A stretch of DNA of 37,766 nucleotides from a virus (lineage: Duplodnaviria; Caudoviricetes): positions 1 to 37,766 of the IMG/VR virus record IMGVR_UViG_3300033076_000454; one strand, 5' to 3'. The notes beneath the pieces are model-generated. The model was given only the letters and a program-made list of their open reading frames with translations, had not been told where the DNA came from and did no database searches. Of this stretch, positions 1-29,300 are shown in pieces. Each line of letters opens with the position of its first letter. Position 1 is the first letter of the stretch. Position numbers and translations under genes: made by a program.

Positions 1-203
1 ACATACGTACAAACGTGCTACCCCACGGTAGCGTCTTTTTAGCTTTTTATTCGTCTTCAAACAATCAAACCACAGCAATTAGTGATCGTCGTCCTGTTAA
101 GGATAGTGATTGAGTGCTCGCTAGCGCGGCGAGGCTTCCACTCCCTGCGATCCAAGATCCAGGTATAGGGCACACGATATTGGCTTGTGCGGGCCTTAAC
201 TGC
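1..203 (-). ncRNA. Candidate structured non-coding RNA downstream of the GIY-YIG gene (probably truncated by the window edge)
   Basis: No ORF on the - strand. About 49% GC overall and about 59% in 111-200 (hand count), against about 35% in sampled lines of the adjacent gene. Back-to-back inverted repeats: 170-174/186-190; 144-152/156-163; 112-116/139-143 enclosing 117-121/129-133; 62-67/107-112 enclosing 92-95/100-103; 17-22/27-32. Strand inferred from the upstream gene. Confidence 0.55.
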
Positions 204-638
204 TTAACCGTTTAGTTTGTTGATTATGTGACTGCCATGTACACGGACTTGAATATGTCCATTGTACCAGTCTTTGGATTCTAGCACTCTGCGTGAAAAT
301 TGTTCTCTTGCTTCGATATAACTGCACTCTGCTTTTGATTTACAGTAATAAAGTATTTCGCGTTTAAAATTGTCTTTGCCTTGGGATTCAACATCTTTGG
401 TTAGTTCAGGGCTAGAACCGTAGTAGTCTTGCCAATCTGAATCAATCTTAGATTTAATCTTCTTTTTCTTTTTAGTGCCGTTTTTGAGTTTGACTGTTTT
501 ATATGTTGTCTTAGAGAATTTTGCTAGTTTTTTGCCTATGTATTTGCGTTCGTTTGTGAGATTAGTGATCATGTAAACATAGCCCACGCAATCGTCGGGG
601 AGAGTTTCTACCGGTTGATTGTTGTAAAGCCATGTCAT
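204..638 (-). CDS. GIY-YIG endonuclease family protein (Seg-like, catalytic domain only)
   Basis: GYVYMITN...KYIGKK motif, Y(Y)GSS, FKREIL, conserved Glu (YIEAREQ) and WYN. Only 144 aa, with a Lys-rich insert and no C-terminal DNA-binding extension. Confidence 0.88.
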   Translation of the reverse strand: MTWLYNNQPVETLPDDCVGYVYMITNLTNERKYIGKKLAKFSKTTYKTVKLKNGTKKKKKIKSKIDSDWQDYYGSSPELTKDVESQGKDNFKREILYYCKSKAECSYIEAREQFSRRVLESKDWYNGHIQVRVHGSHIINKLNG

Positions 639-644
639 GTAGCA

Positions 645-650
645 TAGTTA
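645..650 (-). promoter_or_regulatory. Putative late-promoter variant TAACTA, 6 nt upstream of the GIY-YIG ATG
   Basis: The - strand reads gaTAACTAtgctacATG, one mismatch from the TAAATA found upstream of the structural genes. No Shine-Dalgarno is visible. Confidence 0.35.
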
Positions 651-675: not shown

Positions 676-1542
676 TTATGATAATTCTGTATTTCGCTGC
701 CATTGATTCGTGAAACTTGTATTAGAATCTGCGGTTCCGCATACATCTAAACATACAATATTTGGCTGTAAACTGTTCCAGGAACTTTGTATTTCACCAA
801 AATCTGTGACAAAATCTTTTTGTCTTGACCCAAGCCAGCAACACGGGCCAAGGCGTCCTTGTGCATCAATATATGCACTTTGCTCATTTAACGCATAGCA
901 ATTAACTTTTGTAGATTGCACATTTGGTACTTGCCACCCAATTGGTTGCTCAAGTCTATCTGTAAATCCACGCTTGCTAACTTTAGCACGGAACCATTTA
1001 AATCCCATGTCACGAGCGAGCTGTTCGCACTCGTCTACTTGATGTTGATTGTGTTTATATACAAGCATATCCCAGTGTGCTGAGCCACCTGCTGCAATAA
1101 ATGCCTCAACGTTAGCCATTACTTTGGACCAGGAAACATTTTTTCGATATACTTGATTTGTATCTTCTAGCCCGTCGATACTAAACACAACATAATCAAG
1201 TCTCTGATTCATGATGCGTCCTAACTCGTGCCACCAGAAAGAAGTTTGTATTCCACCATTAGTATTCATACCTAGCACAATGTTGGAGTTGATTGTTCTA
1301 AAAGACTTGTAGATATCCAATGTGTATTTGCCAGCAGCGGGATCTCCGTAGTTGCCGCACATAAACATTTTATCTAACTTTGCAATTTGCTCATCATCGA
1401 ATACTTTTGCAATCTTGTGCATGTCTAGATGATGCTGGCGATCTTTTCGAAAGTCTGGATCGGTTTCGCGAGCACACAACGGGCATGCCGCTTGACATAC
1501 ATCCGTTGGTTCTAAGTGTAAGACTTTTATATTACGCGACAT
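676..1542 (-). CDS. Radical SAM protein with C-terminal SPASM/twitch-like cysteines
   Basis: CxxxCxxC motif (CQAACPLC), GNYGDP, TNGG, FSIDG, and C-terminal Cys cluster (VNC...PCCW...CLDVC). Overlaps the gp46 stop by 11 nt. Confidence 0.88.
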   Translation of the reverse strand: MSRNIKVLHLEPTDVCQAACPLCARETDPDFRKDRQHHLDMHKIAKVFDDEQIAKLDKMFMCGNYGDPAAGKYTLDIYKSFRTINSNIVLGMNTNGGIQTSFWWHELGRIMNQRLDYVVFSIDGLEDTNQVYRKNVSWSKVMANVEAFIAAGGSAHWDMLVYKHNQHQVDECEQLARDMGFKWFRAKVSKRGFTDRLEQPIGWQVPNVQSTKVNCYALNEQSAYIDAQGRLGPCCWLGSRQKDFVTDFGEIQSSWNSLQPNIVCLDVCGTADSNTSFTNQWQRNTELS

Positions 1543-3613
1543 CGATATCAGTATTATAACTTGTAAAGCCGTTTTCTTTGACTACTTTGAGTATATTCTC
1601 AACTCGTCCGGCTAACTCGTCTCTGTGAGAAACAAGCCAAATAGATTTGTTTCGCTCACGACTCATCTTCTTAAGCAAGCCTAATGCGTTTTCTACACCG
1701 CTAGTATCCAAACCGTTGTCAATAAGTTCGTCAATAAACAACAAGTTAATTGGATGATACAACGATTCCCATACATCACGGAATGCCCACGACATTGATA
1801 AGATCAACCTGTTGCGCTCGCCGCGACTCAAGTTGTCAAAATCTAATTCACGACCTAGTTCTTCAATGCTTACAGTTAAATCATTCTGGAACTTCACAGT
1901 ATGTGGCAAGCCAATGCGATCCAAATAATGTGTTAGTCGTTGATTCAAATAACTCAAGTTTTGTTCAATAATCTTCTTGCGAACAAATGAATCTTTAGAA
2001 GTTAATAACTTGAGTAAGAACTCTTGGTGCTCTTGCAGTCGTGTAAGCTCGTTGATTGTGTTGTAGTCAACGGTTTGAAGTGCTTGCTTTTGCATGTCTT
2101 CAATTTGTTCTGTATACGGATCTTTCTCTTCGCCCTTTTTAGAAATCTGATCTAGCAAATTGTTTACTCGGCTGCGGTGCTCAATTGCTTCAGACTCTTT
2201 GTCGTAGTGCGTTGTGGGTTGCGGAGGCACAACAACTTCTTCTAATTCGTCAATTTGCTCGGAGAACGGATTAGTTTCTGCTTCTTTGGCATCCAACGCT
2301 GCCTTCAAACTGTTGAGCTCACTAGAATGTCGGATAGCTTCTGCTTCTGTTTTGTAGTGGGTCGACGGCTTTGTACCTAGTTCACCTAATGCCTTTAACG
2401 CATCGGTGTTTTCGATCCACTGTGTGTTAGTAGCCAGTGCTTGTAAGGCTGCTTCTTGCAATGCCTTTTCTTTTGCTGCTAACACCGATTCGTGATTAGT
2501 GTCGTGGAAGTCTTGACCGCAAGCATAACACTTGTGATTCTTTAGTTCTTCGACTTCGGCTTTTAACTTGTCTACAAGTTTGGTTTCTTTTGCTTCGTCT
2601 GCAACACATCGAGCAATGAGTTTTTCTAAGTCAGCAATGTCTTTGGCTTTTTGATTGTATGCTGCTAAAGACGCCCACGCCGCCAACTCAGTTTCTATAT
2701 TGATGCGATTCTTGTCTAAATAAGCACGTCCGGCTGCTGCCACTTCTGCTGTGTGTTTTTGCCGCCAAGCTGTTTCTCTAGCGACCAATGCGTTGTAGGC
2801 ATCGGCTTGTTGTTTCTTTACATTCCAAACAGTTAAGTCACGGTGCGCCTGTAATTCAACTTCAATATCAATCTTAGAAAGCTCATCGTATTGAGCCGCT
2901 AGATATGCTAGGTCGCTGTCTACTTTCTTTTGCCACAATCCGCTACGACGTTTTAAACTTTCGATTTGCTCTTCGATTCGTTTGTTTGCTTCTTGTAAAG
3001 CTCTAACACGAAACTCTTCTTGTGAGATAGCATCTTTAGTTTGTTTGTTTAGTTCTTTGATCTTGTCTGCACGTTCAGAGAGCAACGTGATACCCAACAA
3101 CTGCTCAATGATAGTGCGTTGGTCGTTTGCTTTCAAACTTAAAAACGGTTCAGTATATGTGTTAAGCGCAAGAACATGCTTGAACATGTCGTGACTCATG
3201 CCTAGGATGCGTTCGATTGCTTCTTGTGTTTCTTTGTTCTCGCCTTGTGCTTCGTCTGTGGCTGCTTGTTCTTCGTGATTGACGTAGAACTTTAGAACGT
3301 TGGGCTTGCGTCCACGTTCAATTTTGTATTCTTTACCGTTAACATCAAACTCTAAACTAACCAACATGCCTTTGCCGTTAGTTTTGTTTACAAGGTTGTC
3401 CTTGCGAATGTTGCTAAGAGCGTTGCCATAGAGTGCATAACTTAGGGCGTTGATAATTGTGGTTTTACCTGTGCCATTACGACTACCATCACCGCCTAAA
3501 TCTAAGTTCTCACCTAGAACTAGTGTAAGGTCATTACGGTCAAAGTTGATACCTTGTGTGGCATTGCCCACACTCATAAAGTTTTTTACAGTTAAATTTT
3601 TAAATCGAATCAT
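1532..3613 (-). CDS. gp46: Recombination endonuclease ATPase subunit (T4 gp46 / SbcC / Rad50-like)
   Basis: KNFMS, Walker A (GEN...NGTGKTT), long coiled coil with CYAC zinc hook, signature LSRGE, Walker B LFIDE, H-loop VSH. Adjacent to an Mre11-like gene. Confidence 0.95.
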   Translation of the reverse strand: MIRFKNLTVKNFMSVGNATQGINFDRNDLTLVLGENLDLGGDGSRNGTGKTTIINALSYALYGNALSNIRKDNLVNKTNGKGMLVSLEFDVNGKEYKIERGRKPNVLKFYVNHEEQAATDEAQGENKETQEAIERILGMSHDMFKHVLALNTYTEPFLSLKANDQRTIIEQLLGITLLSERADKIKELNKQTKDAISQEEFRVRALQEANKRIEEQIESLKRRSGLWQKKVDSDLAYLAAQYDELSKIDIEVELQAHRDLTVWNVKKQQADAYNALVARETAWRQKHTAEVAAAGRAYLDKNRINIETELAAWASLAAYNQKAKDIADLEKLIARCVADEAKETKLVDKLKAEVEELKNHKCYACGQDFHDTNHESVLAAKEKALQEAALQALATNTQWIENTDALKALGELGTKPSTHYKTEAEAIRHSSELNSLKAALDAKEAETNPFSEQIDELEEVVVPPQPTTHYDKESEAIEHRSRVNNLLDQISKKGEEKDPYTEQIEDMQKQALQTVDYNTINELTRLQEHQEFLLKLLTSKDSFVRKKIIEQNLSYLNQRLTHYLDRIGLPHTVKFQNDLTVSIEELGRELDFDNLSRGERNRLILSMSWAFRDVWESLYHPINLLFIDELIDNGLDTSGVENALGLLKKMSRERNKSIWLVSHRDELAGRVENILKVVKENGFTSYNTDIDVA

Positions 3614-4626
3614 AGGCTCTGGTAAATCTTTAATAGTAGTTTGTTGTCGTAGAATTCGGACTCGATATTCGTAAGTTGGTCGGTCACAATTTGATCCACT
3701 GATTCAAACTTAACATCACCGGGAGCCATGTCTTCATCTACTCCCGAAGCCTTATTAGGAATTAATGACATTTCACGAAGTTCGTAAGTTTTGATAAACG
3801 TTTCTTTGATGAAGTTGGCTTCTTCGTAGCTTATCTCAATATCCAAATTGACACGGACATGCATTTTGGGTTTAAGAAGCGTAGCAGCGTTGTCAATGAG
3901 GTTTGCCAAACCGTAGACCCTGTACGTCGGTTGAGCAGGCCATTGATGAAATTCAGGCGGTCTTCCCCACTCCAGAATTGTGAGACCTCTTTCGTCGTCA
4001 CCAGCGTCCGCATAGTTGTGAGGGAACGCATTACCAATGTAGGTGATATTCTTTTTAGTCTGGCGTTTGTGAAAATGTCCAGTGTACACATGACCAAATC
4101 CCCCAAGACTATCTCTTTGCAATTCCCCATGATCCGGCATCTCCACCATTGCGTTCATCAAATAACCAGGCAATTCAAAGTGCCCAAACAAGTATTGTCC
4201 TTTTAATTTAGACAAGCGTTTATGGTCATCACCGCACAACCAAGGTGCAATAACAACGCCACCACTGTCAAACCAATCATTGCAAATATGTACATTTGGG
4301 AGATGCTTTGCCCATTCAACACTTTGGATATCCCGTTTATCGCGATAGTAAAGATCGTGATTACCAGGAATAAAGTACACATGATCAAAGTTGTCATTTA
4401 GATGCTCCAATGCTTGCAGGCTGTAGTTCAGCGTGACAATGTTTAGAGTAGATCGGTTGTTGTGCCAATCACCTAAGAACATGCAGGTTTCGCAACCTTC
4501 TTCTTTGGCTTTTTGAGTCGCCCACTTAACAAAAGCCAAACAGTCCTCGTTGTGGAGAACGGAATTTGACTTTAGGCCAAAGTGAATGTCAGTGAAGATT
4601 GCGGCTTTTTTGAATAAGTTAGTCAT
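3610..4626 (-). CDS. gp47: Recombination endonuclease nuclease subunit (T4 gp47 / SbcD / Mre11-like)
   Basis: Metallophosphoesterase motifs DIHFG, LGDWH, PGNHD, GHFE, GHFH. Start placed at the second Met (MTNLFKK, 4626); the ORF track gives 4641. ATGA overlap with gp46. Confidence 0.93.
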   Translation of the reverse strand: MTNLFKKAAIFTDIHFGLKSNSVLHNEDCLAFVKWATQKAKEEGCETCMFLGDWHNNRSTLNIVTLNYSLQALEHLNDNFDHVYFIPGNHDLYYRDKRDIQSVEWAKHLPNVHICNDWFDSGGVVIAPWLCGDDHKRLSKLKGQYLFGHFELPGYLMNAMVEMPDHGELQRDSLGGFGHVYTGHFHKRQTKKNITYIGNAFPHNYADAGDDERGLTILEWGRPPEFHQWPAQPTYRVYGLANLIDNAATLLKPKMHVRVNLDIEISYEEANFIKETFIKTYELREMSLIPNKASGVDEDMAPGDVKFESVDQIVTDQLTNIESEFYDNKLLLKIYQSL

Positions 4627-5521
4627 TGCTTGATTGTACATGATTCAGTATGCGTTGAGCAATAGCCTTGTGGCTCAAAGGACCTGGATGTACGCCATCT
4701 GTGCCGTTGTCAAGGTGCAATCCGTAGTTAGAACAGTACTCTGGATACTTAACATATTCTGACACATAGTCATAAATTGCGCCAAAATCACTAATTGAAG
4801 TTATTACAAATTTACAACCAATTGCTTGTAAAAATTTAGTTCCTGTGTTGAGCAAGCTCAACTGGTTAAAATACAATTGTTCATCAGTAATGCTATCTAT
4901 TAGTTTACGATCCAAACTAGAATTAAGTACGATTTCCTCAACATGTTTGCCATTGAACTGGCTCAATCGTCCTGGAGTAGTCAGTTGCCATATCACAGTA
5001 TCATGCTTTTGTATGCAGGAATTAAGTAGATGCCGATAACTCCAAGCCAAACTGCTACCCGGTTTTGTAATTAACTTTAGTGGTAAGTTAAGATATTGGG
5101 ATAACCATTGTCCGTAGTTAAGTTCATTAGATCGTAGCCCAGTGCCGTGACTATAGCTGCATCCAAAAATCCACAACATAGGTTGATCTAATCTGTTATC
5201 AATATCGGGGTGTGTAGTAAATCGCTGAATGTTCGGCCGAATGTTAGGCTGAAAGGTTGTATCTCGCCTACACAAGTATTGAAACAAGGTCAACGACTCT
5301 TTGTAGATTGTACTATCAACATCGAATCCTCGTGATTCAAATTTAATGATGTCAAATTGAGAAGACAATCGAATAATTTGATCCACTTGTAGATCGCCCA
5401 GTGATGTGTGATATACACCGGGCGACAAGTTTTCTTTATAGCTGTTAACTAGCGTTGAACTAGAATCAACTTGAGAAAAATCAAAAGTTGATTCTGTTAT
5501 ATACAAAACCTTTTGCGTCAT
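4619..5521 (-). CDS. SGNH/GDSL hydrolase-fold protein
   Basis: Block I-like WIFGCSYSHG, block II-like PGSS, block V DGVHPGPLSH. The N-terminal ~110 aa are unassigned. Confidence 0.65.
   Translation of the reverse strand: MTQKVLYITESTFDFSQVDSSSTLVNSYKENLSPGVYHTSLGDLQVDQIIRLSSQFDIIKFESRGFDVDSTIYKESLTLFQYLCRRDTTFQPNIRPNIQRFTTHPDIDNRLDQPMLWIFGCSYSHGTGLRSNELNYGQWLSQYLNLPLKLITKPGSSLAWSYRHLLNSCIQKHDTVIWQLTTPGRLSQFNGKHVEEIVLNSSLDRKLIDSITDEQLYFNQLSLLNTGTKFLQAIGCKFVITSISDFGAIYDYVSEYVKYPEYCSNYGLHLDNGTDGVHPGPLSHKAIAQRILNHVQSSND
4633..4662 (-). promoter_or_regulatory. Possible sigma70-type promoter for gp47, inside the end of the SGNH gene
   Basis: The - strand reads TTGCTC-N18-TACAAT-N6-ATG(4626). Imperfect consensus. 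Confidence 0.3.
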
Positions 5522-6417
5522 TCGTCTAAGCTAGATACAACCGGTCCGGACATAGCAGCCATACTAGTTTTACCCGAGTTCTGACGAGTCCATGAAGGAT
5601 TGAGCCCGTTCATTTCAAGGATATCATCTCGTATATTTTGGTTCTTTTTCTCAATGTTAAGAATGCGTGTAAAACTATTAGTGATCGCAGCGGTATAGTA
5701 AGCGAACGGGTTCTGTGATTTTGACTCGTCAAACTGTAGACCAATTTGACTAAGTTGTAAAAGAGCTTGTCCACGCATTTCCTCGTTGTAAGTATAGCCA
5801 CGCCAGTTGCTACGTGTAGCATAGCGTTCGCACAATTTCATAAACATTGTGGCCAATTTTCGTGTCATTTGACCGTGATCTTTGCAGAACTCTCCAGTAT
5901 CTAAGTCGCCCTTCCAGTGCGATCTACCCACCAAAAACGGCGTTTTTTCGTCGTCAATTCGGTAGTGTTCAAACGGTGGAAAGTTAACTCTAACGTGGTT
6001 CATGTCCAGCACAGGCACGTCTACAATATCCGCTAGAGGATCTTCTTCGGTAGCATCGTCAAGATCTAGTATTTCTTCTAGCTTGCGTTTTTTAGCTTCT
6101 GCTTTGGTTAATTTTTTTGGAGCTTTTGGGATGTGGTCCCAGCACGTAATGCGAAACACTAAATCTGTGTTTGGGATCTTCTTTTGATCAATAACTTCGC
6201 CAGTTTCGCGCTTGATACGGTCAGCACGATTTTTACGTGCTTCTACTATTGTGCGCTGATTGATCTTGTCTACGCTAGGCAAAATAATATCATATTGATG
6301 ATCATTTACTCTATCGCGGTACCAACAGTAATTGTTTTTGCTGAGGTGAATTTCCTTAAGAATGTCCCTGTTGTTAAGATAGTTAACTCTGGGAGCGGGT
6401 TTTGGTAATAAAGTCAT
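5518..6417 (-). CDS. gp55: Late transcription sigma factor (T4 gp55-like) with a large internal insertion
   Basis: NYLNNRDIL at the N-terminus and NWRGYTYNEEM...FDESKSQNPFAYYT...F.R....EKK match gp55-family motifs. Sits upstream of gp47-gp46 as in T4-like phages. Confidence 0.82.
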   Translation of the reverse strand: MTLLPKPAPRVNYLNNRDILKEIHLSKNNYCWYRDRVNDHQYDIILPSVDKINQRTIVEARKNRADRIKRETGEVIDQKKIPNTDLVFRITCWDHIPKAPKKLTKAEAKKRKLEEILDLDDATEEDPLADIVDVPVLDMNHVRVNFPPFEHYRIDDEKTPFLVGRSHWKGDLDTGEFCKDHGQMTRKLATMFMKLCERYATRSNWRGYTYNEEMRGQALLQLSQIGLQFDESKSQNPFAYYTAAITNSFTRILNIEKKNQNIRDDILEMNGLNPSWTRQNSGKTSMAAMSGPVVSSLDE

Positions 6418-16800: not shown

Positions 16801-17335
16801 TACTGCCTATCAAAATTGGATCAAAGACACAACTAATACTGTGGTCGAACCAGATATGCCGTCAATTGACGAGTTAGGCACAGCATACCAAGGTCTCGAC
16901 GATTATAAAATGTTAAGCGATAACATTGTTTTAAACTCAGTGACCTTTAAACCATTGTTTGGGGAAAAGGCAGCACCTGAATTGCGAGCAACAATTAAAG
17001 TAATCCGTGCGCAAGGATCTACTGCCAGCACCAGCGAAATTAAGAACGCCGTGATAACAGAAATGAATAACTATTTTAGTATTGACAAATGGAATTTTGG
17101 TGATACCTTCTACTTCTCAGAACTAGCAGGTTATCTACACAAACAACTAGGAACTATTATTAGTTCTGTAGTTCTTGTCCCATTGAATACACAAAAGTAC
17201 TTTGGTGACTTATATGAAATTCGTAGTCAACCAAATGAAATTTTTGTTAATGGCGCAACTATTAACAATATTGACGTGATTGAAGCATTAACCAGTACCA
17301 ACTTGCGTACTGCACCAGGAAGTGGAGTTATCTAA
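13883..17335 (+). CDS. gp6: Baseplate wedge subunit gp6-like (baseplate J family), enlarged
   Basis: DFETLRKSFVDYL...FNDY.ESS...LLD..A...ENYLDTA.RRDSV..LA, FGDGVFSEIP, E.IAEIKQRAP..Y.TQNRMV..EDY, and C-terminal FG..FYFSEL. Confidence 0.9.
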   Translation: MAKTTRQTAIFGVEDWKQIYQTYREADFQSYDFETLRKSFVDYLRLYYPETFNDYIESSEFIALLDIIAFMGQALAFRTDLNTRENYLDTAERRDSVTQLANLVSYTAKRNTAASGYLKVFSVSTTENVVDYNGVNLSNVTVDWADPTNPDWQEQFTAIINASLVDSQRVGRPGARQTILGVRTEEYGINLVAGFLPVIPYTATVDGINMPFEAVTSTMAGKDYVYEPSPVPNTTFNILYRNDQLGYNSANTGYFFSFKQGVLQNQDFNLAERIANRTVNINIEGINNEDRWLFQLDNVGNISREWAYTENIYAAGAEQVGTQLRPIFTTTSRTNDQITMVFGDGVFSEIPVGTFRAYVRSSNGLQYIINPEEMQAVVLPISYIDRNGNLQTITFTCGITQPVSNSQAREPIAEIKQRAPARYYTQNRMVNGEDYNLFPYTQYNSIIKSKALNRASIGTSRYLDLVDNTGKYSSTNSFGSDGGLWQQNILPTILFSWVNRNEIADVITNQVQPQLGYNTMRQFYYANFPRQTVNAGATAGYSWNQSTTLANETTGYFRNATYSTQWPNGSPIAVGTTTSTVFQYVVVGSLIKFVPPAGYYFDKNNKLQQGTPTRAEERLEIWASPLEVVGDGSNNGLGNLSSGAGPVTLNNFVPTGAIVDTIIPLFVTDLPLSIETAMAEQIVLYRNFGLGYDNDGTITGTPATWYLITSTNLDQDAPFSLANAGSTAGTNSDASWLIQFVTENQNYTITFRGLAYSFGSVLQTRFFFYDGQQVYDSRTGTVIKDFINILAVNTKPDSTDHLPGDVYTTITGQPVESDGYVDDFQVLVGFRDSDNDGVPDNPDFFNEIVAPAVNPNQKLVFLQQTVDFDNLQRYLLVESGVVNSDYATLEDIELVLTEWSPGQVFYAYDDEVFYELTISTTGVRSVVEASGWLARTGRQDLYYQYRHNSPLTNRIDPGTTNIIDLYVVTQSYYTAYQNWIKDTTNTVVEPDMPSIDELGTAYQGLDDYKMLSDNIVLNSVTFKPLFGEKAAPELRATIKVIRAQGSTASTSEIKNAVITEMNNYFSIDKWNFGDTFYFSELAGYLHKQLGTIISSVVLVPLNTQKYFGDLYEIRSQPNEIFVNGATINNIDVIEALTSTNLRTAPGSGVI

Positions 17336-20300
17336 TGGCTAGAGTTCGTTCGGTAGATTTTTTACCAGAAATTTTTCAAACTGATACTAATAAACAGTTT
17401 CTAGCCGCTACGTTAGATCAGTTGGTTCAAGAACCAAAGTTTAAAAAGACACAAGGGTTTATTGGTCGCACAGTAGGACCAGGTGTAAACCCTAATGACA
17501 AATATGTAATTGAGCCTAACAAAGTTCGTGCTGACTATCAACTAGAACCAGGTGTTATTAGTTTAGTGCCAGACACAAACACCATTAAGAATGCAATTAC
17601 CTATCCCGGTATCAACGATGCTATTGGTTTCCAAGGTGGCAATCAAACACGACCAGACCGTCTATACTCGAGCGAATTCTACACATGGGATCCGTTTGTT
17701 GACTTTGACACATTTGTTAACTTTAGTCAATACTTCTGGCTTCCAGGTGGCCCAGATGCTGTTGATGTATCTGCAACCGGAATCCCTGCTAGCGATAATT
17801 TTGTTGTAGATCGTGCAAACGGTGTTTACACGTTCTCTGGCATTTCTGGTGATGATCCTGTTATTGAATTGGTTCGAGGCGGTAGCTATACATTCCAAGT
17901 AGCACAAAACGAAAAAGAAACAGTTAACTATCGTGTTCAAAATGCAGGAACTTCTGCATACAAAATTGATCAACAGACTAACCCTACACTAACTCTAGCG
18001 CGAGGCAATACCTACGTATTCAATTTGAACCTAAACGGAGTATACCCATTCTGGATTAAGAATGCGCTGACTCTCGGTACAGGTGATGCTTATAATTCTG
18101 GCGTAATTCGCAACGGTTCAGCAACTGGTTTAGTCACATTTACAGTACCACAAGATGCACCTGATACATTATATTATGTAAGCGAAAATCAAATTAATTT
18201 GCGCGGCCAGCTGAACATTGTTAACGGTACACCTGGTACTGGACCGGGCTTCTGGATTCAATCAACTCCGGGTATTGCTGGCGTGGTAGAATCAACTCCA
18301 AACATTAGCAATAGAAATGTCTACGGGGTAGAGAACAACGGCGAAGACCTTGGAACAATTACATTCAACGTTCCACAAAAAGATGCACAAAGTTTTTATT
18401 ACAACTTACCTAGTATCGGTACTGTTGATATTTTAACAGCGTTACACTTTGATCAGATTAATAATCAACCGCTAGATGATATCATTGCCAACTATGGCGG
18501 CCTTGATGGCATCACCACTCTTAACAACAAAACAATAGTATTCTCAACTACTACCGATGATCCAGTAGCTGGCGGCTGGATCAGAACGTCATTGGTAGAT
18601 TCTTCTACTAGCGTTATTCCATTTAATGAGCGCTACCAAATCTATCAAATTAGCTACGTTGTATACAACAATATAACATATCTAGTATTAAACCAAGTCG
18701 CTAGCATTGCTATCCAAGATAAATTTACAATTCGATACGGTGCGCAATATTCTAACACAGGTTGGTATAAAGATGACCAAGGCTATCTGACTCAGATTCC
18801 GTTGTTAACTGCGGTACAAGACGTTTTATATTACCAAGATGGCACCGACCCTGAAATCTTTGGGCGCTTTTTATTAATTGACCAAACTGAAAATAGTACT
18901 TTGCGCATTGATAATATCTTAGGAAAGAAGTCATACACAAGTCCAAATGGTGTAACATTTACTAATGGATTGAAGGTGTTATTCCGTGGTGACGTAGAAC
19001 CTGCAAGTTATGCTAATAACGAATACTATGTGTCAGGAGTAGGAACAGCGATTGAACTGCTTCCAGTCGCTAACTATGTTTGCCCCGAATCATATGTTGT
19101 TGATGCTAGTGATAGTGCCCTCTTTACAGAACCTAGTGATCTTGACTATTTAACTATTAGTCGTGCAAGCAAAGACCTCAATGCATGGACACGGTCAAAC
19201 CGTTGGTTCCACATTGATGTTATTAATGCTACAGCTGAATATAATCACACGGTTGCAGTTTTAGACAATGCATATAGAGCCAAGCGACCTATTATTCAGT
19301 TCCGCCCTGGCGTTCGTTTATGGAACATGGGAACAGAAGGTAAACAACCAGTTGATATCATTGACTTTGAAGAAACAGATGCATTTTCAAATATTGAAGG
19401 ATCAACAGGCTACTCAATCGATGGCTACACATTTGTTGAAGGAACTCGTGTAATTTTTGCTGCTGACGAAGATGCTGATGTTCGCGACAAAATTTATGTT
19501 GTATCTTTTGTTAGTCCGGATACTGTTAATCCGTTAATCGACCAACCAATCATCAATTTAACGTTAGCGTCCGATGGCGAAGTATTAGCAGATCAAAGCA
19601 CGGTTTGTCTTTACGGCAATACACTCAAGGGACTAACATTCTGGTACGATGGTACACAATGGGCAGAAGCACAATTAAAAACAGGTATACAACAAGCGCC
19701 ATTGTTTAACGTTTACGATAGCACCGGAATCAGCTTTGGAGATCAAAGCAAGTATCAAAGTTCTACCTTTGCTGGTAGCAAATTGTTTAGCTACGCCATT
19801 GGAGACACTAATGTTCTTGATCCTATTTTGCAATTCCCATTGCAATATTTGAATATCAACAACGTTGGTGACATTGTATTTGAAAACAATTTGTACAAAG
19901 ATACTTTCTTGTATGTTAACGATAACGTTAGCGTAACTTCTGACATTAGCTCAGGAAGTGCAAGAGAATATGCGACCCGCACAGTATTTGAACGTTTAAT
20001 CGGATGGCAAACTGCGGCAACACTAAGCCAAATTAGACAGCAGTTTAAATTTACATACTCAAACAGTACATTAAAGTTAGACGTTAAAGTAGCATCATCT
20101 GATGTTAACATTCCTGCTATTAAATTATACGTAGGATCAGTCTTCCAAGATCCAAGCAAATACAGTTATATCACAACTGCGGATAGTACCACGATTACGT
20201 TAAACGAAACTTATGCAATCGGTGATATTATTGAAGTTGCGGTTCTTAGTGAACAAACTAGCCAAGTAGGATTTTATCAAGTTGCAAGCAACTTAGAATC

Positions 20301-23300
20301 TAATCCGTTAAACGGAAACTCTGATAGCTTCACCCTAGGTACTATCCGTACTCACTACCAAAGTATCTGTGAAAACTTGTCTACATTAACTGGCACAGTT
20401 AATGGAGCTAACAACAGTCGAGACCTTGGTAATATTGTTCCTTATGGCTTGATCATTCTACAACAAAGTGCCCCTCTAACATTAGCTGGGTACTTCTTGC
20501 GATCAGACGAATATAATATTTTTGCATCATTGCAATATAACAGCAGAGAGTATACTAAGTTCAAAGGACAAATGCTCGAGGCAGTGACTCGCCAGAACAT
20601 TCAATATCAATCTGCTGGACAAATATTAGATACAGCAATTGCTGATATCACTTTAGGAAAAATTGATACACAACCATTTTACTGGTCAGATATGATTCCT
20701 GCCAGCGAAGTGTTTACTAATACTGAATACACAGTATCATTAATTAGCACTAATGTATTTGATACCGTCCAAGTTTACAATTACGAGTCAGCAAATTATC
20801 TAGGCATGAACGTATATCTAAATGATGTATTGCTAACTCGCGGAACAGATTACATTGTTGCAACTGATGGTCCTCGTATTACAATTCTAACTACATTGGC
20901 AGTCGGCGATGTTATTAGACTTCAAGAATACAATGCTACTTACAGTACTTTTGTTCCAAACACTCCTACTAAACTAGGATTGTACCCAGCATGGCGCCCA
21001 GAAATCATAACACAAAAGACCAGCAACGGCGATGAACTTGCTATTATTGGCCATGACGGTAGTATTACTAAAGCGTTTAACGATATCCGAGATCAAGTTT
21101 TATTAGAGTTCGAAACTCGAATTTATAATAACCTTAAACTCGATGGCAACCCAGTTCCGTTAACTATTACAGATGTATTGCCTGGACAGTTCCGTGATAC
21201 TGGATACACGTTCGAAGAGATTAACAATATATTCGCCACAGACTTCTTAAGCTATTGTGGCTGGAATAAACTTGATTATAAAACTCAAACTTATAGTGCA
21301 TCAAACGAATTTTCTTGGAACTACAGCAGCGCACAAAACAAACTTAACAATGAAAACTTGTTAGGCGCCTGGCGCGGTATTAATCGATATTTCTACGACA
21401 CACAACAACCACAACGTACTCCTTGGGAAATGCTTGGGTTCAGTGAAGAACCAGCATGGTGGGAAGAATTATATGGCGCGGCACCTTATACAAAAGATAA
21501 CTTAGTTTTATGGGACGACCTCGAAGCTGGTTATGTTGCAGATCCTGCTGGCCCATACTATCGTCCAGAATATGCTCGCCCTGGGTTATCGAATGTAATT
21601 CCTACTGGAGACGAAGGACAATTATTGAGTCCTTTTGATTCAGTAGTTGGAAATTACAATAATCAATTATGGCAAAAATCTTGGTCAGTCGGTGATGGTG
21701 GCCCAGTTGAAGCGTCGTGGTGGAATAGCTCTAGCTATCCATTCTCAGTAATGCACGTTCTGGCGGTGACTCGTCCTGCTAAGTTCTTTGCATTATTTGC
21801 AGACCGTGATTTATACCGATACAATGATGAGTTTAACCAATACTTGTACAACAATCGATATCGCCTTGATGCAAACGGCGTTGAAGTATACGGTAATGGA
21901 TTATCAAAAGCTAGTTATATTAACTGGATTGTAGATTATAATCGACAAAGCGGCATTAACTCAACAGACACTCTTACTGCTGATTTAGCAAACCTTGACG
22001 TTCGTTTATGCTATAGAATGGCAAGTTTCTCTGATAAGCAATACATTAAATTGTTTACAGAAAAGTCAAGCCCGAATAGCACAAACACAACGCTGATGAT
22101 TCCCGACGAGAGCTATAACTTATTGCTTTACAAAAATCAAGCATTTGATCGCTCTAGTTATTCAAGTGTGGTTATCCAACAAGTATCCGGCGGCTATGCA
22201 GTCTTTGGTTATAGCACCACACAACCTTATTTTAATGTGTTGGCTAGCAGAGCTGCTGGTAAACAACAAACAATAAGCACAGCAGGAATCACTGTTCGTG
22301 TGCCTACTTTGTACACAGATAATGTAGTGCAAATACCTTACGGGTATATTTTTGCAAACGAAACTGGCGTTGTTGACTTTTTGTTAAGCTACGGGAAGTT
22401 CTTAGAAAGACAAGGACTAGAATTTACTAACATTACCAACGGGTATGTGTTAACTTGGGAGCAAATGTCTCAAGAATTCTTGTACTGGAGCCAACAAGGT
22501 TGGAGCGAAAATGCTCTGATTAACTTGAACCCATTGGCATTTAAGTTATCGGTGACAAAGCCACAAGCAGTTGTTGATAGTATTCGTGCTCAAACTAGCG
22601 AAGATGTGTTGCTAGATCAAAATCGTCGAGAGTTGCCCACACGCAATTTAAACATCACACGTATTAACAACACATTTACTGTTGAGCCGTTAACTGATCA
22701 ATCGTTAAGTTTTATTGACTTACGTTATACAAGTTATGAACATATGATTGTTTTGAACAATCAAAGTGTGTTCGGCGATTTAATTTACCAACCTACAACC
22801 GGCGCTCGCCAAAGCCGACTCAGCTTAGTTGCAGTCACTACTACGGACTGGAATGGGCAGGTAGATGCACAAGGTTTTATTCTTAACAGAGACAACGTTG
22901 AAGAATGGACAGGGTTGCGCACTTATGCCAAAGGCGAAATTGTTAAGTACAAGAATGTATATTGGTCTGCACTAACTATCGTACAACCAAGTACATCATT
23001 TGATTACAATGTATGGACGCAAAGTGATTATACTCAAATTGAATTAGGATTACTCCCAAACATTGCTAACAAGGCAAATCAATTAGCTAACAGTTATAAC
23101 ATTAACGAAGCTAACATCGAAAATGACAATGATTTATTGTCATACGGATTAATTGGTTTCCGTCCGCGTCAATACATGGCAGCACTTAACCTTGACGATA
23201 TAAGTCAAGTTAACGTGTATCGTCAATTCTTAGATAGCAAAGGGACTATACTCAGCGCAGAATTGTTCTCTCAAGCTAACCTAGGTAAAGAATCAGGCGA

Positions 23301-26300
23301 TTATCAAATTTACGAAAACTGGGCAGTCCAACGTGCAGTTTACGGTGCTAATGCTAACCGTAGCTTTGTGGAATTGCGTTTAGATAGATCATTCCTTAAT
23401 CCAAATCCAAGTTTGGTTCAAGTGGTATTACCGCAACAAGAAAGTCAAGCTGATCAACAAATATTGTTTAGTGACATCTGGCGTCAGAGCTACAGGTTAA
23501 CTAGCCCGAACTTCTTGCCTACAACAACTACTGTACCTACTGATACAGCGTTGCCTAGCGCCGGTTATGTAAACATTGATGACGTAGATATTACTGTATT
23601 TGACATCAATGACCCTTCTAGTCTTTCTGCAAACATCAATAACATTGATGTTGGTACTGCTATATGGGTTGCTAAAGTTAACAGCTACGACTGGAACATT
23701 TATCGCGCACAACAGGTACCGGGACAAATCCAGCACGTTTGTGATAACCTCAACGGCACAAGTAGAGTGATTTTTAGTGCTCACCATGGACTTTCAGTTG
23801 GTGATAAACTAATCATTCGATTCTTTGATACCGAAGTTAATGGTGTTTACGAAGTGTTGGCGGTTCCTGATTTGAACACAGTAAACATTGCGTTTACTTT
23901 TAGAGCTGGAAGAGTCGTAGTCAATGGAACAGGTATAGGACTAACTTTGCAAACTATGCGTGTTGCGCAAGCTAGCGACATTATTAACCTACCGTATGTC
24001 AATGATATTTTACCAGGTGCTAAAGTATGGGTAGATAACAACGGTTCAGGAAACTGGGAAGTATTAGAAAAGTCTAATGTTTTCTCTGAAGTAGTCGAGC
24101 TTGCTCCTGTCTTACTTGACGCTGGTGAACAGTACGGTAGTGCAGTCGCGCAAGCAACTAATCGTTTTGCAGCATTAGTTGGTAGCCCGAGATATAATTT
24201 TGGTTCCGGCACAGCTAAGGGCGGTGTGTATGTATACGTCAAGAGCTATAGCGACCAGTATACACTAGTAAGCCCTACAGCAACCGGTGATGCAATTCTT
24301 ACACTAGATGCTACAGGTGTTCGTGGATACGGCAATGCAGTTGACTTTGGAAATCAAACTTGGGCCGTTGCTGGTGCAAGTGCAAGTTTAGGTCCTGCAA
24401 GCCAAGCTAATAATGGCTACGCATGTGTAATTTATAAAGATCCGGCGCTTGGTCAACCAGGTGTTGTGCCATACGCACAATGGCAATTACTTACACAGCC
24501 TGGGACAACTACTGTAAGCACTCCCGGTGCTGGAGAGTTTGGATACAGCGTAGTGATGAGTGCAGACGAACGATGGATGTACATTGGCGCACCTGGGCTC
24601 AACCAAGTACACGCCTACGGACGTGTCACCTGGCAAGATCAATTTATTAAGTCACGGGGCGACGGCGAAACTGTGTCGTACGATATCAGTTCAGCTATAC
24701 AAATTGATGCAGCAACACAATTAAAAGTCACTGTTGATGGGAAAATTTTAATCCTGGGCACAGACTACACAGTTGATGGTGGCTTTACTACAGTGACCTT
24801 TACAACAGCCCCAGCATTGGATACATTAATTGAGATCCAACGTTATTCTATTTTCCAATTAGATTCTGGAACATATTATGAAGTTTCACAAAGTGCAACC
24901 TCTGGGTCAGGCACCAACGCTGAATTTACAATTGTAAGAGTACGCGGCGAAATTGGTCAGCCAGGTGCAGACAAAGGTACAGTTGGCGTAACCAATGGCG
25001 GTAGTGGCTATTCTATAGGTGATACTATTACCATTGCTGGCAGCAGCTTTGGCGGCACAAACAACGCTACACTAACAGTGACTGGAGTAAACGCCGGTGC
25101 GGTGACAACATTCACAATTGCTTACACTCCGCCTTCGCTAGCAACAGTATTTTCGTTGAACGAGCAATTCTTTACAGTTAACAGTATATACTCGTTTAGC
25201 ATTACAGTTGACGGTGTGTTGTATCGTCCTAACATCGATTATACGTTTAACACTGGCACAACAGACATAACGTTTGTGACTGTACCAGCACAAGGTACTG
25301 TGATAATAGCAACAGCTCAAAGTTATTTTGAATATGTTGATTCTATTACTGTTGCTGGCCTTGGAGGTAGCGACCGCTTTGGTCAATCAATTAGTTGCAC
25401 CACAGACGGACGTCAATTGATCGTTGGTGCACCATATAGCACCGTTGACAGTGAATTAGAAGCTGGTAGCACTTACGTCTTTGACAGAAATGTACAGAAA
25501 TTTATTGTTAGCAATGCATCAGAAGATACCTATACTGTGCTAGGTTCAATTACTGGCCCAGTAAGTGTTATCCTTAACAATGTATTTTTAACTAACGAAA
25601 CCGATGGAATTGTTGGAGCTAATAATACATTCTCTGTCAGTGGCAATGATATTACTATCAATGCAACGTTAGCAATCGGCGATACGATCGAAATTGAAAC
25701 TAATCAATTTGCACAACTTCAACAGATTAATCAAAATGTTGTTGCTGAGTTTAGCAACTACGGCGCTGCAACAGATATCTGTTCTTATAATTGCAGCTTA
25801 TATGTAGGTGAACCGCAGAGCTCAGTTCAAATATTTAAAGGTGGTGCTGTTGAACGTAGTGTTAACCAGAGCCGCATCTACGGAACTATTACTGCTACAG
25901 TAGCAAATCCTACTTTAGACAATGGCGATACCATTCGTGTTAATAATATTGAAGTAGCAGTTCCTAATGCTCCTAATCAAAATGTCACTGGACTAGCGGC
26001 GGCTATTAATGCTGCGGTACCTAACGTTGATGCTACAGTATCAACAACAGGATATTTGACTATTAGCGTTAAGAACAGCGATGCAGCACCGCAATTTAAT
26101 AAATTACAAGTTGCACCGGGTGCAGTCGGTGATGTGTTTGATGCACTAGGTTTTGAAACCTTTGTATACACACAAACTATTACAAGCCCATATCCAACTG
26201 CTTTATCGGGATTCGGTTCAAGCATTAGTGTTGATGACACCGCGACTAGTTTAGTCATTGGTGCTCCGCGAGGCACAGAGTATCTCGAAACCTTGTGGGA

Positions 26301-29300
26301 TAATGGAACAACGATATTTGATGCTGGAAGCACTCTGTTCTTTAGCATTATTATCCAAAGCGGTGTGGCGTACCTATACGATTACTTGCCAAGTTCATCA
26401 TTATCTGTGGATAATCCTGGCATGTTTGTATTTGGTAATCAGTTAACTGATTCTAATATTGCACCGTACGATCAATTTGGTACCGCAGTTAACTACACAT
26501 CTGGTGTATTAATGGTTGGCGCCCCTACTAACGATGCCGGCGACAGCGCCGCAGCATTTGGTAGAGTCTTTGTATTTGAAAATACAAACCGCACACCTGC
26601 GTGGTCAGTAATCCGTGAGCAACAGCCAGTTGTTGATGTTAGCTTGCTCAACAGCGTATTCTTATACGATAGAATTACAAGTTCTACTACTGAATTCCTT
26701 GACTTCTTTAATCCGTTGCAAGGAAAGATTCTTGGTGCCGCAAGACAGAATATTGATTACATTGGTGCAGTTGATCCTGCTAGTTATAACATAGGTCCAG
26801 TGAATATTCGCGGTACTACGTGGGGTGCAGACTATGTTGGGCAAGTATGGTGGGATATTTCTACTGTGCGTTTTATTGATCCTAATCAAGATGATATTGT
26901 TTACGCTAGCCGTCGTTGGGGACAAGTATTCCCAGGCAGCTCAGTAGATGTTTATCAATGGATTGTAAGCCCTGTGCCTCCGGTGGAATACACAGGCCCA
27001 GGCACACCTTTAGATACATTAAGTTATAGCATTAATTCTAGCTTGTCTACAAGCGGAACATTTGTCACTGAATATTATTTCTGGGTCAAGGGACTTACTA
27101 CAACTGCCACACAGTTAGGTAAGACATTGAGCATTGCAACAGTAGCTCAATATATTCAAGATCCAAAGGCTAGTGGCATTAGCTATCTTGCTCCTATTAA
27201 TAGCAGCACTATTGCGCTATATAACTCAGGCGACCTAATCGAAGCATCAGATACAATTATTAACATTGAATTTGATCGCGAATATACTAACAACAACGTT
27301 CACGTCGAATACGAACTAATTGCACAAGATAAAGCAGACGGATTCTTAAGTGATAATTTATATCGCAAACTTCAGGACAGTTTCTGTGGAATTGATACCG
27401 CTGGTAATCTTGTACCTGATCCTAACTTAGGTCCAGCGGAGCGTTATGGCGTACAATTCCGCCCACGCCAGTCAATGTTTGTAGATCGATTTGAAGCGTT
27501 GCGCAATTATTTGACTCGTGCTAATAATGTATTGAAACTATACCCTATTAGCGAAAGCCGAACATTTACATTGTTGAACTCGAGCGAACCAGAACCAGGT
27601 TCTAATTCTGGTCTGTGGAATTTGCGTGTCGCTAACTTAGAGATACTTGGATTCCAAGATATCTATGCAGTTCCATTGGGATACAAATATCTTGTAGTAA
27701 GTGATAGCGATAACAGAGGCTTATGGACCATTTACACCGTTGAGTCTGATACTGCCAATTTAGGTGGCCGTATCCTAGTATTAACTCGAGTACAAGGTTA
27801 TAATACTGCTGACTACTGGAGTTATATCAATTGGTACCTACCAGGATACAACTCTAGCACCAAGGTAATTGTTGAAGTTCCAAACTATAGCGCCTTGGCA
27901 ACACTAAATGTAATGGTTGGAAGTTCAGTTAAAGTCACTGCAAACGCTCAAGGCAAATGGGAAATCTATCTGCTAACCGATACTGGCTGGCAGCGTGTGG
28001 GCTTGCAGGATGGTACAATTGCTTTCTCTGCAGAACTATGGGATTATGCTATTGGACGTTTTGGATTTGACGTTGAAGTTTTTGACGCACAATATTTTGA
28101 TCAAGAACCTGTTATCGAAACTAGAAAAATTATTCAAGCAATCAACGAAGAATTGTTTATCGACGATCTGTTAATTGAGCGCAACAAAGCGATGGTGTTG
28201 ATGTTCAACTATGTGTTGAGCGAATTTGCAGCGCCTGAATGGTTAGTTAAAACTAGTTTGATTGACGTTGATCACAGAATCCGTGAGTTGATTCCATTCC
28301 AAAACTACACTCGAGATAATCAAGAATTCGTTTCGGATTATATTCAAGAAGTTAAACCTTATCACGTGCAAGTTCGTGAGTTTAACTTGCAATATAGTGG
28401 CTTCGATGAATACTTCGGGGACACTACTGACTTTGACGTACCAGCATACTATAATACAACCCTAGAAGTACCACAATACACTAGTCCAATTTTGTTGCCT
28501 TACGCACATTCAACACCGCAGGCCACTAACACTCTTAGTGATGCATCGTCAACTTCTACAATTTGGAGCAAGTGGCCGTACAGTCAATGGTACAACAATC
28601 ATCTATTGAGCATCGACAGCGTTAGCGTTGTTAACCAAGGAACTGGTTATACTGAACCGCCAACAATTATATTCTCAGGAGATGCTACAGAAGCAGCAGA
28701 AGCCACAGCAGTAATTAATAGCCTAGGCCAAGTGGTTGCAATTAACGTAATTAATCCAGGATCTGGATACCTACAAACTCCTACTGTTATATTTGACGGC
28801 GGCAACGGCACTGGTGCTAGAGCATACGCTGTAATGAGCAACGGCTTGGTACGTAGTTTCCGTACAGTAATTAAGTATGATAGATTCCAGTACCAAACCG
28901 CAATTGAAACATGGAATTCTAGCGGCACTTACGAAAACGGCACTTTGGTACGTTATGATGATAGAGTTTGGCGTGCAGAAAACAGCGACGGCAGCTCTGC
29001 TAACGTAGGCCCTACATTTAATCTCGAAGATTGGGTGCCAGTTCCTGCAAGCGAGTTGTCGGGTGTTGACCGTACCATGGGATACTATGTTGCCGGAGCA
29101 AATCAACCTGGCCTAGAATTACCATTGTTAGTTGACGGTGTTGATTACCCGGGAGTACAAGTATTTGGAGATTATTTCCTTGGTACATTAAACCTCGATG
29201 CTGATTACCAAAGCAGCTTTACTGATCAGTACTTAGGAACACGATTTACTGACATTAATGTTGATGGTGGCGAATTCATTGGACCATACGAAGGTCATGC

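Follow-up and report, generated by a model that had tools for sequence, protein, structure and literature searches.

Large structured RNAs that abut a nuclease gene include the nuclease-associated guide RNAs HEARO and omega RNA. In the replication of ColE1, RNA II forms a persistent hybrid, for which a stretch of G in the RNA must pair with a stretch of C in the template (PMC4412123). The T4 origins oriF and oriG are R-loops in A+T-rich elements (PMC3016281), and the T4 replisome replicates any plasmid bearing such an R-loop (PMC5043065, PMC4412123, PMC3016281). Those T4 R-loop origins that have been studied best are driven by middle promoters and become inactive late, and just one unpublished remark ties oriC to a late promoter (PMC3016281). 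Among RNA families, the Polynucleobacter-1 motif was described by Weinberg et al. in 2010 (PMC2864571), where the accessible main text gives no function, a table line marks it "y" for RNA and "y" for cis-regulation in Burkholderiales and fresh water, and the supplement holds the alignment rows of 16 representatives. A full-text literature search by motif name returned this original paper alone, and further literature searches returned nothing on the element described here.

We analysed a window of 37,766 nt, which is the whole contig of a T4-like phage, and the contig end at base 1 falls inside an RNA element. Read on the minus strand from 195 to 59, the window matches the Rfam model RF01718, Polynucleobacter-1, over its entire length (59..195, model positions 1-141, 115.3 bits against a gathering score of 37, E 1.5e-24), and a freshwater setting is common to both. 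However, the model spans just ~140 of the ~450 nt of the element. The first-pass annotation had been unable to place this stretch in a family; the Rfam search does so, and the element, truncated in the window, belongs to an RNA family that is known but has no assigned function.

A conserved fold at the left end of the window

Positions 1..206 (minus strand) are the 5′ part of a large structured RNA, ~205 of ~450 nt, cut at base 1, and share 90–93% identity with the 5′ part of the full-length relatives L036, L031 and L016. Contigs of close relatives overrun the window's ends in 4/4 DNA runs, and loose ends in two DNA runs carry the next conserved loop past window base 1, which lies in the 5′ arm of the hairpin following P7. 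Since the window stops mid-element, all facts on the 3′ part come from relatives. RNA runs contain 4–6% of the words, and the contigs from these runs cover the region but show neither strand, ends nor level.

The fold was followed through an alignment of 88 relatives with a mean identity of 66%. Helix P1 (170..190, minus strand; 190-186 with 174-170) is 99% paired, with compensatory changes. The bulged helix P2 (144..163, minus; 163-156 with 152-144) is variable, 88–90% paired, and was not recovered in a 20-sequence consensus. P3 (117..133, minus; 133-129 with 121-117) is 97% paired, and its loop may pair with the 5′ end near 200-205; this 5′ pseudoknot is weak (153/240 cells paired), with one column pair that covaries strongly. 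A multi-way junction follows (62..112, minus), made of P4 (112-107 with 67-62), a small hairpin (103-92) and a G.U-rich hairpin (87-68), and in P4 527/528 cells are Watson-Crick across the 88 relatives. Past the 3′ end of the Rfam model come a hairpin with compensatory changes in relatives (17..32, minus) and the 5′ arm of the next long hairpin (1..15, minus). The loop of the latter is off the contig and forms, in relatives, a six-pair pseudoknot (515/522 cells paired); a second well-supported pseudoknot is paired in 349/350 cells. Taken across the 88 relatives, P1, P3 and P4 are 97–100% paired with compensatory changes, and double-sided changes occur in 19/30 predicted pairs among 20 aligned sequences, the window included. 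Non-canonical cells over the full element number 990 G.U versus 320 A.C on the minus strand, and the strand is fixed as minus because the G.U-rich stem pairs there. Positions 1..206 are half of a conserved, covarying minus-strand fold.

The hairpins had been proposed from the letters of the window, and the named arms are exact reverse complements by a script check (170-174/186-190, 144-147/160-163, 149-152/156-159, 112-116/139-143, 117-121/129-133, 62-67/107-112 and 17-22/27-32), with the TCCT 92-95 and AGGA 100-103 arms also present as read from the sequence. These hairpins are real, beyond chance by covariation, but their folding energy is ordinary and their strand is the minus. Against shuffles, 1-203 scores z +0.06 on the plus strand and -0.51 on the minus strand, no better than chance, and 59-195 scores z +0.32 on the minus strand; the full-length relative L016 reaches z -2.6. 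What was described as a weak CAC/GTG hairpin has six pairs, G.U among them, when read on the minus strand, where 91% is paired against 62% on the plus strand. Within the 10-bp bulged hairpin, the inner CTCGC/GCGAG stem is P3 and is retained in the family, whereas the five pairs of the outer GAGTG/CACTC helix are not conserved as a set: pairing is 77%, one position is mostly a gap and another is C.A in 53/88 relatives.

The broader suspicion of a large structured RNA is borne out by the covarying fold and its ~450-nt extent in relatives, and the idea that the structure can stand independently of the nuclease by the other genes that neighbour it in phages and islands. As the annotation had judged, the stretch is neither tRNA nor tmRNA, with no ARAGORN or Rfam match to either; known ribozymes, RNase P and group I/II introns likewise gave no Rfam match at the gathering score, nor at E up to 1 in five loci. 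Nothing else in the analysis spoke for a ribozyme. The plus-strand frame that ends at TGA 111-113 is not a conserved coding 3′ end, being open in 31/88 relatives and of out-of-frame length in 63/88, and its TGA is kept in 87/88 because the stop sits in a conserved helix.

Conservation extends over ~450 nt in relatives, with a central hairpin, a terminal hairpin and two strong pseudoknots, and in their 3′ part two 7-nt direct repeats flank a hairpin; these repeats are absent from the window, being off the contig. We collected viral relatives with the nuclease as query, and among the best 80 of 574 most nuclease-first relatives have 430–500 non-coding bases after the stop. In the collection searched, ~1,500 viral stretches fit one core pattern. 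Directly after the GIY-YIG stop, classes B (L021, L073, L626-L745) and C (L035, L046, L506-L625) carry two alternative 5′ domains in the same slot, joined to a common 3′ part, and ~160 stretches of the collection match each of the two class patterns. The middle part, the 3′ part, the twin repeats and the class B and C 5′ domains have no Rfam match. Comparison with GenBank phages by blastn gave no match. Scanning genome contigs with the core pattern gave 120 loci, with no real element among them by profile, but chance matches in G+C-rich genomes, two of which were also searched with Rfam and gave no match.

Three large genomes hold one copy of the element each. The 302-kb phage record G004 holds two different elements (G004:C1:165725-166200 and 275700-276250), one following a RusA-like gene after gp46 and the other sitting among unrelated genes. 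Tandem short repeats of the TAGGCA type, iteron-like in appearance, lie ~330-220 nt upstream of the core in L132, L098 and L158, and at least three copies are present in just 6/73 loci.

Twin repeats in the 3′ part of relatives

By mutual information, three pairs of columns with a distance of 50 covary by identity. We located the repeats with a parser blind to their sequence and found the hexamers of both copies identical in 140/144 phage loci (shuffle maximum 49) and 54/56 metagenome loci (shuffle maximum 26). The repeats match in 53/55 class C loci (shuffle maximum 32), a set that partly overlaps the phage and metagenome sets, while class B, with 48/52 matching against a shuffle mean of 44, is uninformative, its repeats being nearly invariant. 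Short and duplicate loci were left out of these counts, together with 8 phage and 2 metagenome loci that the parser could not place; by eye, most of the unplaced loci still have matching copies, L083 is without one copy, and L157 and L167 resemble chance matches to the pattern. Four of the six counted mismatches are parser slips and two are real G/A differences. In L083, repeat copy 1 and the central hairpin are missing and the element runs straight into copy 2, which may reflect a deletion between the repeats.

The repeat sequence itself is free, with GGATGA, AGATAA, GCATAA and ATGAAG found in phages and AGCGAA, ATCGAA and GACAAA in islands. Mapped onto a tree of 88 elements, changes at the three variable positions number 20/20, 10/10 and 16/16 for one copy and the other, with 21, 10 and 16 joint changes. 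Close relatives differ by concerted change with almost no intermediates; the flanks of the repeats are not homogenised. Spacing of the copies ranges from 47 to 72 nt, with no helical phasing. Each of the two elements of G004 has its own matching pair, and these two different pairs argue against one shared binding protein. A reading of the repeats as a K-turn or box C/D was dropped because island and class B repeats are without the GA motif.

Identity without a fixed sequence implies that a complementary strand is needed. The complement of the repeat occurs within the element in 19/200 cases versus 25 expected, so no third pairing partner is apparent; with no complementary partner in the RNA, copy 1 most likely pairs with the template DNA at copy 2, as in ColE1. 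On these sequence patterns, the full RNA probably anchors on its own template as a hybrid, and the hybrid between copy 1 and copy 2 would be short, 7–10 bp. Differences between the copies (copy 1/copy 2) run one way, with G/A 108 times versus A/G once at +8 and T/C 38 times versus C/T twice at +9, and would be wobble pairs in a hybrid of RNA copy 1 with the template strand at copy 2; they are largely inherited states with few independent events. G/T at +8 (13 loci, and 17 in class B) fits neither direction, and a fixed CTC versus TCT difference just upstream does not agree with the wobble direction.

Neighbour genes, late-type boxes and islands

The RNA of the window starts at the stop codon of a SegE-like GIY-YIG nuclease gene (204..638, minus strand; 144 aa; PF19835, E 3.6e-33; PHROG 447). 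A TAACTA box (645..650, minus), 6 nt before the start codon, is likely a variant T4-late promoter. TAANTA lies within 20 nt of the GIY-YIG start in 43/53 non-identical relatives, at exactly 6 nt in 30 of them, against a shuffle rate of 5%, and the TAACTA box would likely give a leaderless transcript of nuclease plus RNA. Upstream on the same strand (676..6417, minus) are genes for a gp55-like late sigma, an unknown ORF, gp47/SbcD, gp46/SbcC and a radical SAM protein, which all run, together with the GIY-YIG gene, toward base 1. A radical SAM gene and a 300-aa ORF without Pfam or PHROG match (676-1542 and 4619-5521) lie inside the gp55-gp47-gp46 block, and the structural gene block holds a 4,744-aa ORF (17335-31569). 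The sole plausible match of the GIY-YIG structure model is the I-TevI catalytic domain, at E 0.78.

The core lies 150–400 nt behind the nuclease in 69/80 nuclease-first loci (best 80 of 574) and further down in six; of the remainder, three are too short and two are without the core in the DNA covered. Conversely, the nuclease is upstream in 59/71 RNA-first loci with 800 nt of upstream DNA, where the other upstream neighbours include RusA-like resolvases, MazG and RNase H, with one chance pattern match. A RusA-like resolvase occupies the neighbour slot in phage loci L107, L114, L158, L132 and L441. The GIY-YIG nuclease is a replaceable neighbour of the RNA. Most genes on the downstream side converge on the element. 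The place after gp46 is taken by the GIY-YIG gene (window 204-638) or by a RusA-like PD-(D/E)XK protein (L107, L114, L158 and L441), a hint that this GIY-YIG family, which PHROG 447 labels "NAD synthetase", may consist of junction-processing nucleases. In L097, where a diverged element lies at a contig end, an RNase H gene (749-1168) is found ~650 nt upstream of the core.

A metagenome scan with the Polynucleobacter-type motif gave 119 loci. Where there was enough upstream DNA (n=59), the neighbour was a divergent DUF6641 gene in 52, GIY-YIG in three and RusA-like in one; an integrase is present in 29/31 long loci and a clamp-loader-like ATPase gene in 18/23 long island loci. One DUF6641 homologue is named from a Polynucleobacter genome, and the four phage genomes searched for DUF6641 had none. 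The T4 late box is TATAAATA. PMC2988020 describes this box as an 8-bp TATA box with no -35 element. TAAATA precedes the island RNA in 74/75 loci (background 2.7%), and it is the most enriched hexamer before ORFs in 4/4 phage genomes and precedes structural genes in the window. It also stands before 14/14 small island ORFs, picked by an N-terminal pattern, and before DUF6641 in 0/63. Several loci (L448, L449, L450, L460 and others) combine integrase, DUF6641, late-type boxes before small proline/glutamine-rich ORFs and a clamp-loader-like ATPase.

From these features we infer that the integrase-bearing islands are satellites of T4-like phages. Phage satellites such as PICI and PLE are likewise chromosomal islands with an integrase, apparently wired to a helper phage; here, in contrast, a T4-like jumbo phage would act as helper, a gp55-type promoter would provide the wiring, and the part in common would be an RNA. 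A capsid-targeting N-terminal motif was found in 1/244 late ORFs and rejected. The GIY-YIG nuclease and DUF6641 are both predicted to have a long basic β-hairpin, but homology between them was also rejected (hhalign probability 2%, E 0.022, not significant). The DUF6641 model (pLDDT 85) has no clear fold match in solved or viral structures.

A possible RNA-primed origin and its alternatives

We compared the DNA behind the repeats with that of ColE1. The 45 nt behind copy 2 are 67–68% A+T versus 54% in the element, and the motif GAGCG-N1-4-AGCGA, which has only 10 fixed bases, lies behind copy 2 in 120/181 (median 39 nt) and is absent in 61/181. In the ColE1 record, G6 occurs exactly twice, at 928 and 1175, and GAGCGTAGCGA occurs once, at 1332, 157 nt behind the second G6 tract, a spot that we take to be the primosome assembly site (ssiA/pas). 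PMC3167613 places ssiA near the ColE1 origin, with no sequence given in its accessible text. Both RNAs are long and folded with an upstream RNA segment identical to a downstream DNA segment, and an A+T-rich stretch followed by GAGCG-N-AGCGA behind the repeat is common to both. They differ in that the segment is here a free 7-mer with copies 47–72 nt apart, whereas in ColE1 it is a G tract 247 nt apart, and in that the element has a late-type promoter and is found in phages and islands, whereas ColE1 belongs to plasmids. The ColE1 system also includes the antisense RNA I and Rop. No sequence likeness was found. By this analogy the element most likely works in the manner of ColE1 RNA II, without belonging to the RNA II family. 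Searches of 72,556 plasmids by blastn at E 0.1, with a phage query and an island query, gave no match, and the element is therefore not a known free replicon.

The T4 origins oriF and oriG share with the element a T4-like phage, a promoter with a downstream A+T-rich element, and an R-loop as the replisome signal, the last being proposed here (PMC3016281). However, they are ~100 bp long, use middle promoters and need no specific RNA sequence according to the accessible text of PMC3016281, whereas the element has a 450-nt conserved fold and a late-type box. GC and AT skew in four large genomes showed no turn at the element in G001, G002 and G003, and in G004 a skew minimum near the element coincides with a switch of gene orientation; skew is a weak test because it follows the coding strand here.

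Our preferred reading, held tentatively and with slightly less than even confidence, is that the element is an RNA-primed origin common to T4-like phages and their satellites, in which a self-anchored RNA would prime or load replication. An origin had been among the suggestions of the first-pass annotation, as a structured DNA element; it is the best reading here as well, but in the form of an RNA-primed origin that the relatives suggest. Going by motif enrichment, the phage late sigma would start the RNA, which in phages would share a message with the nuclease and in islands would be a transcript by itself. Next, the 5′ and middle domains would fold, and the hairpin would bring repeat copy 1 beside the polymerase as it passes copy 2, where, as covariation suggests, copy 1 would pair with the template strand of copy 2. 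By analogy, the hybrid could extend into the A+T-rich stretch behind and be trimmed to a primer, and the displaced strand with the GAGCG-N-AGCGA hairpin could receive the helicase. Islands would keep the RNA, the late box and the clamp-loader-like gene so as to be copied upon infection by the helper phage. Against an origin stand the missing skew turn, a promoter of late rather than middle type, the lack of a plasmid carrier and the converging downstream genes.

The main rival has the same self-anchored hybrid mark the start site of DNA packaging, or of late recombination, with satellites copying it for packaging by the helper. The late-type promoter in phages and islands fits packaging too, because T4 terminase depends on gp55: it interacts with gp55, and gp55-deficient extracts package ~100-fold less well (PMC3012670). 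The nuclease in the phage neighbour slot, either GIY-YIG or a RusA-like resolvase, would suit it as well. Yet there is no sharp contig terminus, with 8/27 nearby contig ends within 500 nt of the element and scattered, the T4 pac site lies in gene 16 (PMC3012670), and replication is favoured by both the ColE1-like motif downstream and the clamp-loader-like gene; packaging is an unlikely explanation. Rather unlikely, too, is a free-standing late non-coding RNA, such as a scaffold, decoy or ribozyme, that acts after release, the repeats being two sites for one protein or a product of gene conversion. Two strong pseudoknots and three exchangeable 5′ domains do exceed what a primer would appear to need, and a hairpin at the element's end is terminator-like. 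But the repeats vary widely and still match within each element, including the two elements of one genome, and their concerted change, almost without intermediates and with flanks left unhomogenised, speaks against such a product.

The abutting nuclease gene recalls HEARO and omega RNA, and copy 1 might be the short guide of an RNA that partners the adjacent GIY-YIG nuclease. The close spacing of core and gene (69/80 nuclease-first and 59/71 RNA-first loci), a transcript that the two likely share, and the long basic β-hairpin predicted in both the nuclease and DUF6641 are in keeping with this, but the linkage is not obligate. Here the nuclease is replaceable or absent, as in the 52/59 metagenome loci that have DUF6641 (three have GIY-YIG and one RusA-like); DUF6641 is itself absent from 4/4 phage genomes, and the β-hairpin likeness is not significant. 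No variable segment of guide length is seen, and the sole examined match to copy 1 is copy 2, which makes a guide improbable. A role in cis, as a 3′ UTR or regulator of the operon upstream, would explain why the RNA starts at the stop codon in phages and would agree with the cis-regulatory entry in the table of PMC2864571. Such a role is very improbable, as the RNA in islands stands behind a promoter-like box of its own, with the closest gene on the upstream side directed away from it, and in most phage loci the next gene converges. Hardly credible is a template for reverse transcription with a jump between the repeats: a cDNA jump would have the same geometry, with copy 1 on the complement of copy 2, but no RVT_1 match was found in 5/5 phage records (two at least 90% complete, three incomplete), where a control was positive in 3/14.

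Returning to the RNA-primed origin, its fuller form is possible, if on balance somewhat less likely than not: widespread origin RNAs of ~450 nt, with swappable 5′ domains and a changeable 7-nt segment that re-pairs with its own template under late sigma, would be common to freshwater T4-like jumbo phages and to undescribed chromosomal satellites carrying the RNA, gp55-type promoters and a clamp-loader subunit. The Polynucleobacter-1 motif has been without a function since 2010, and its case warns against taking every large RNA next to a nuclease gene for a guide RNA. If the origin reading is true, this orphan motif gains a function, and a ColE1-like primer system would exist outside plasmids, with a compact RNA that forms an R-loop at a site it specifies itself. 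It would also reveal satellites of T4-like phages that are switched on by late sigma, and would show how abundant uncultured lake phages may start their replication.
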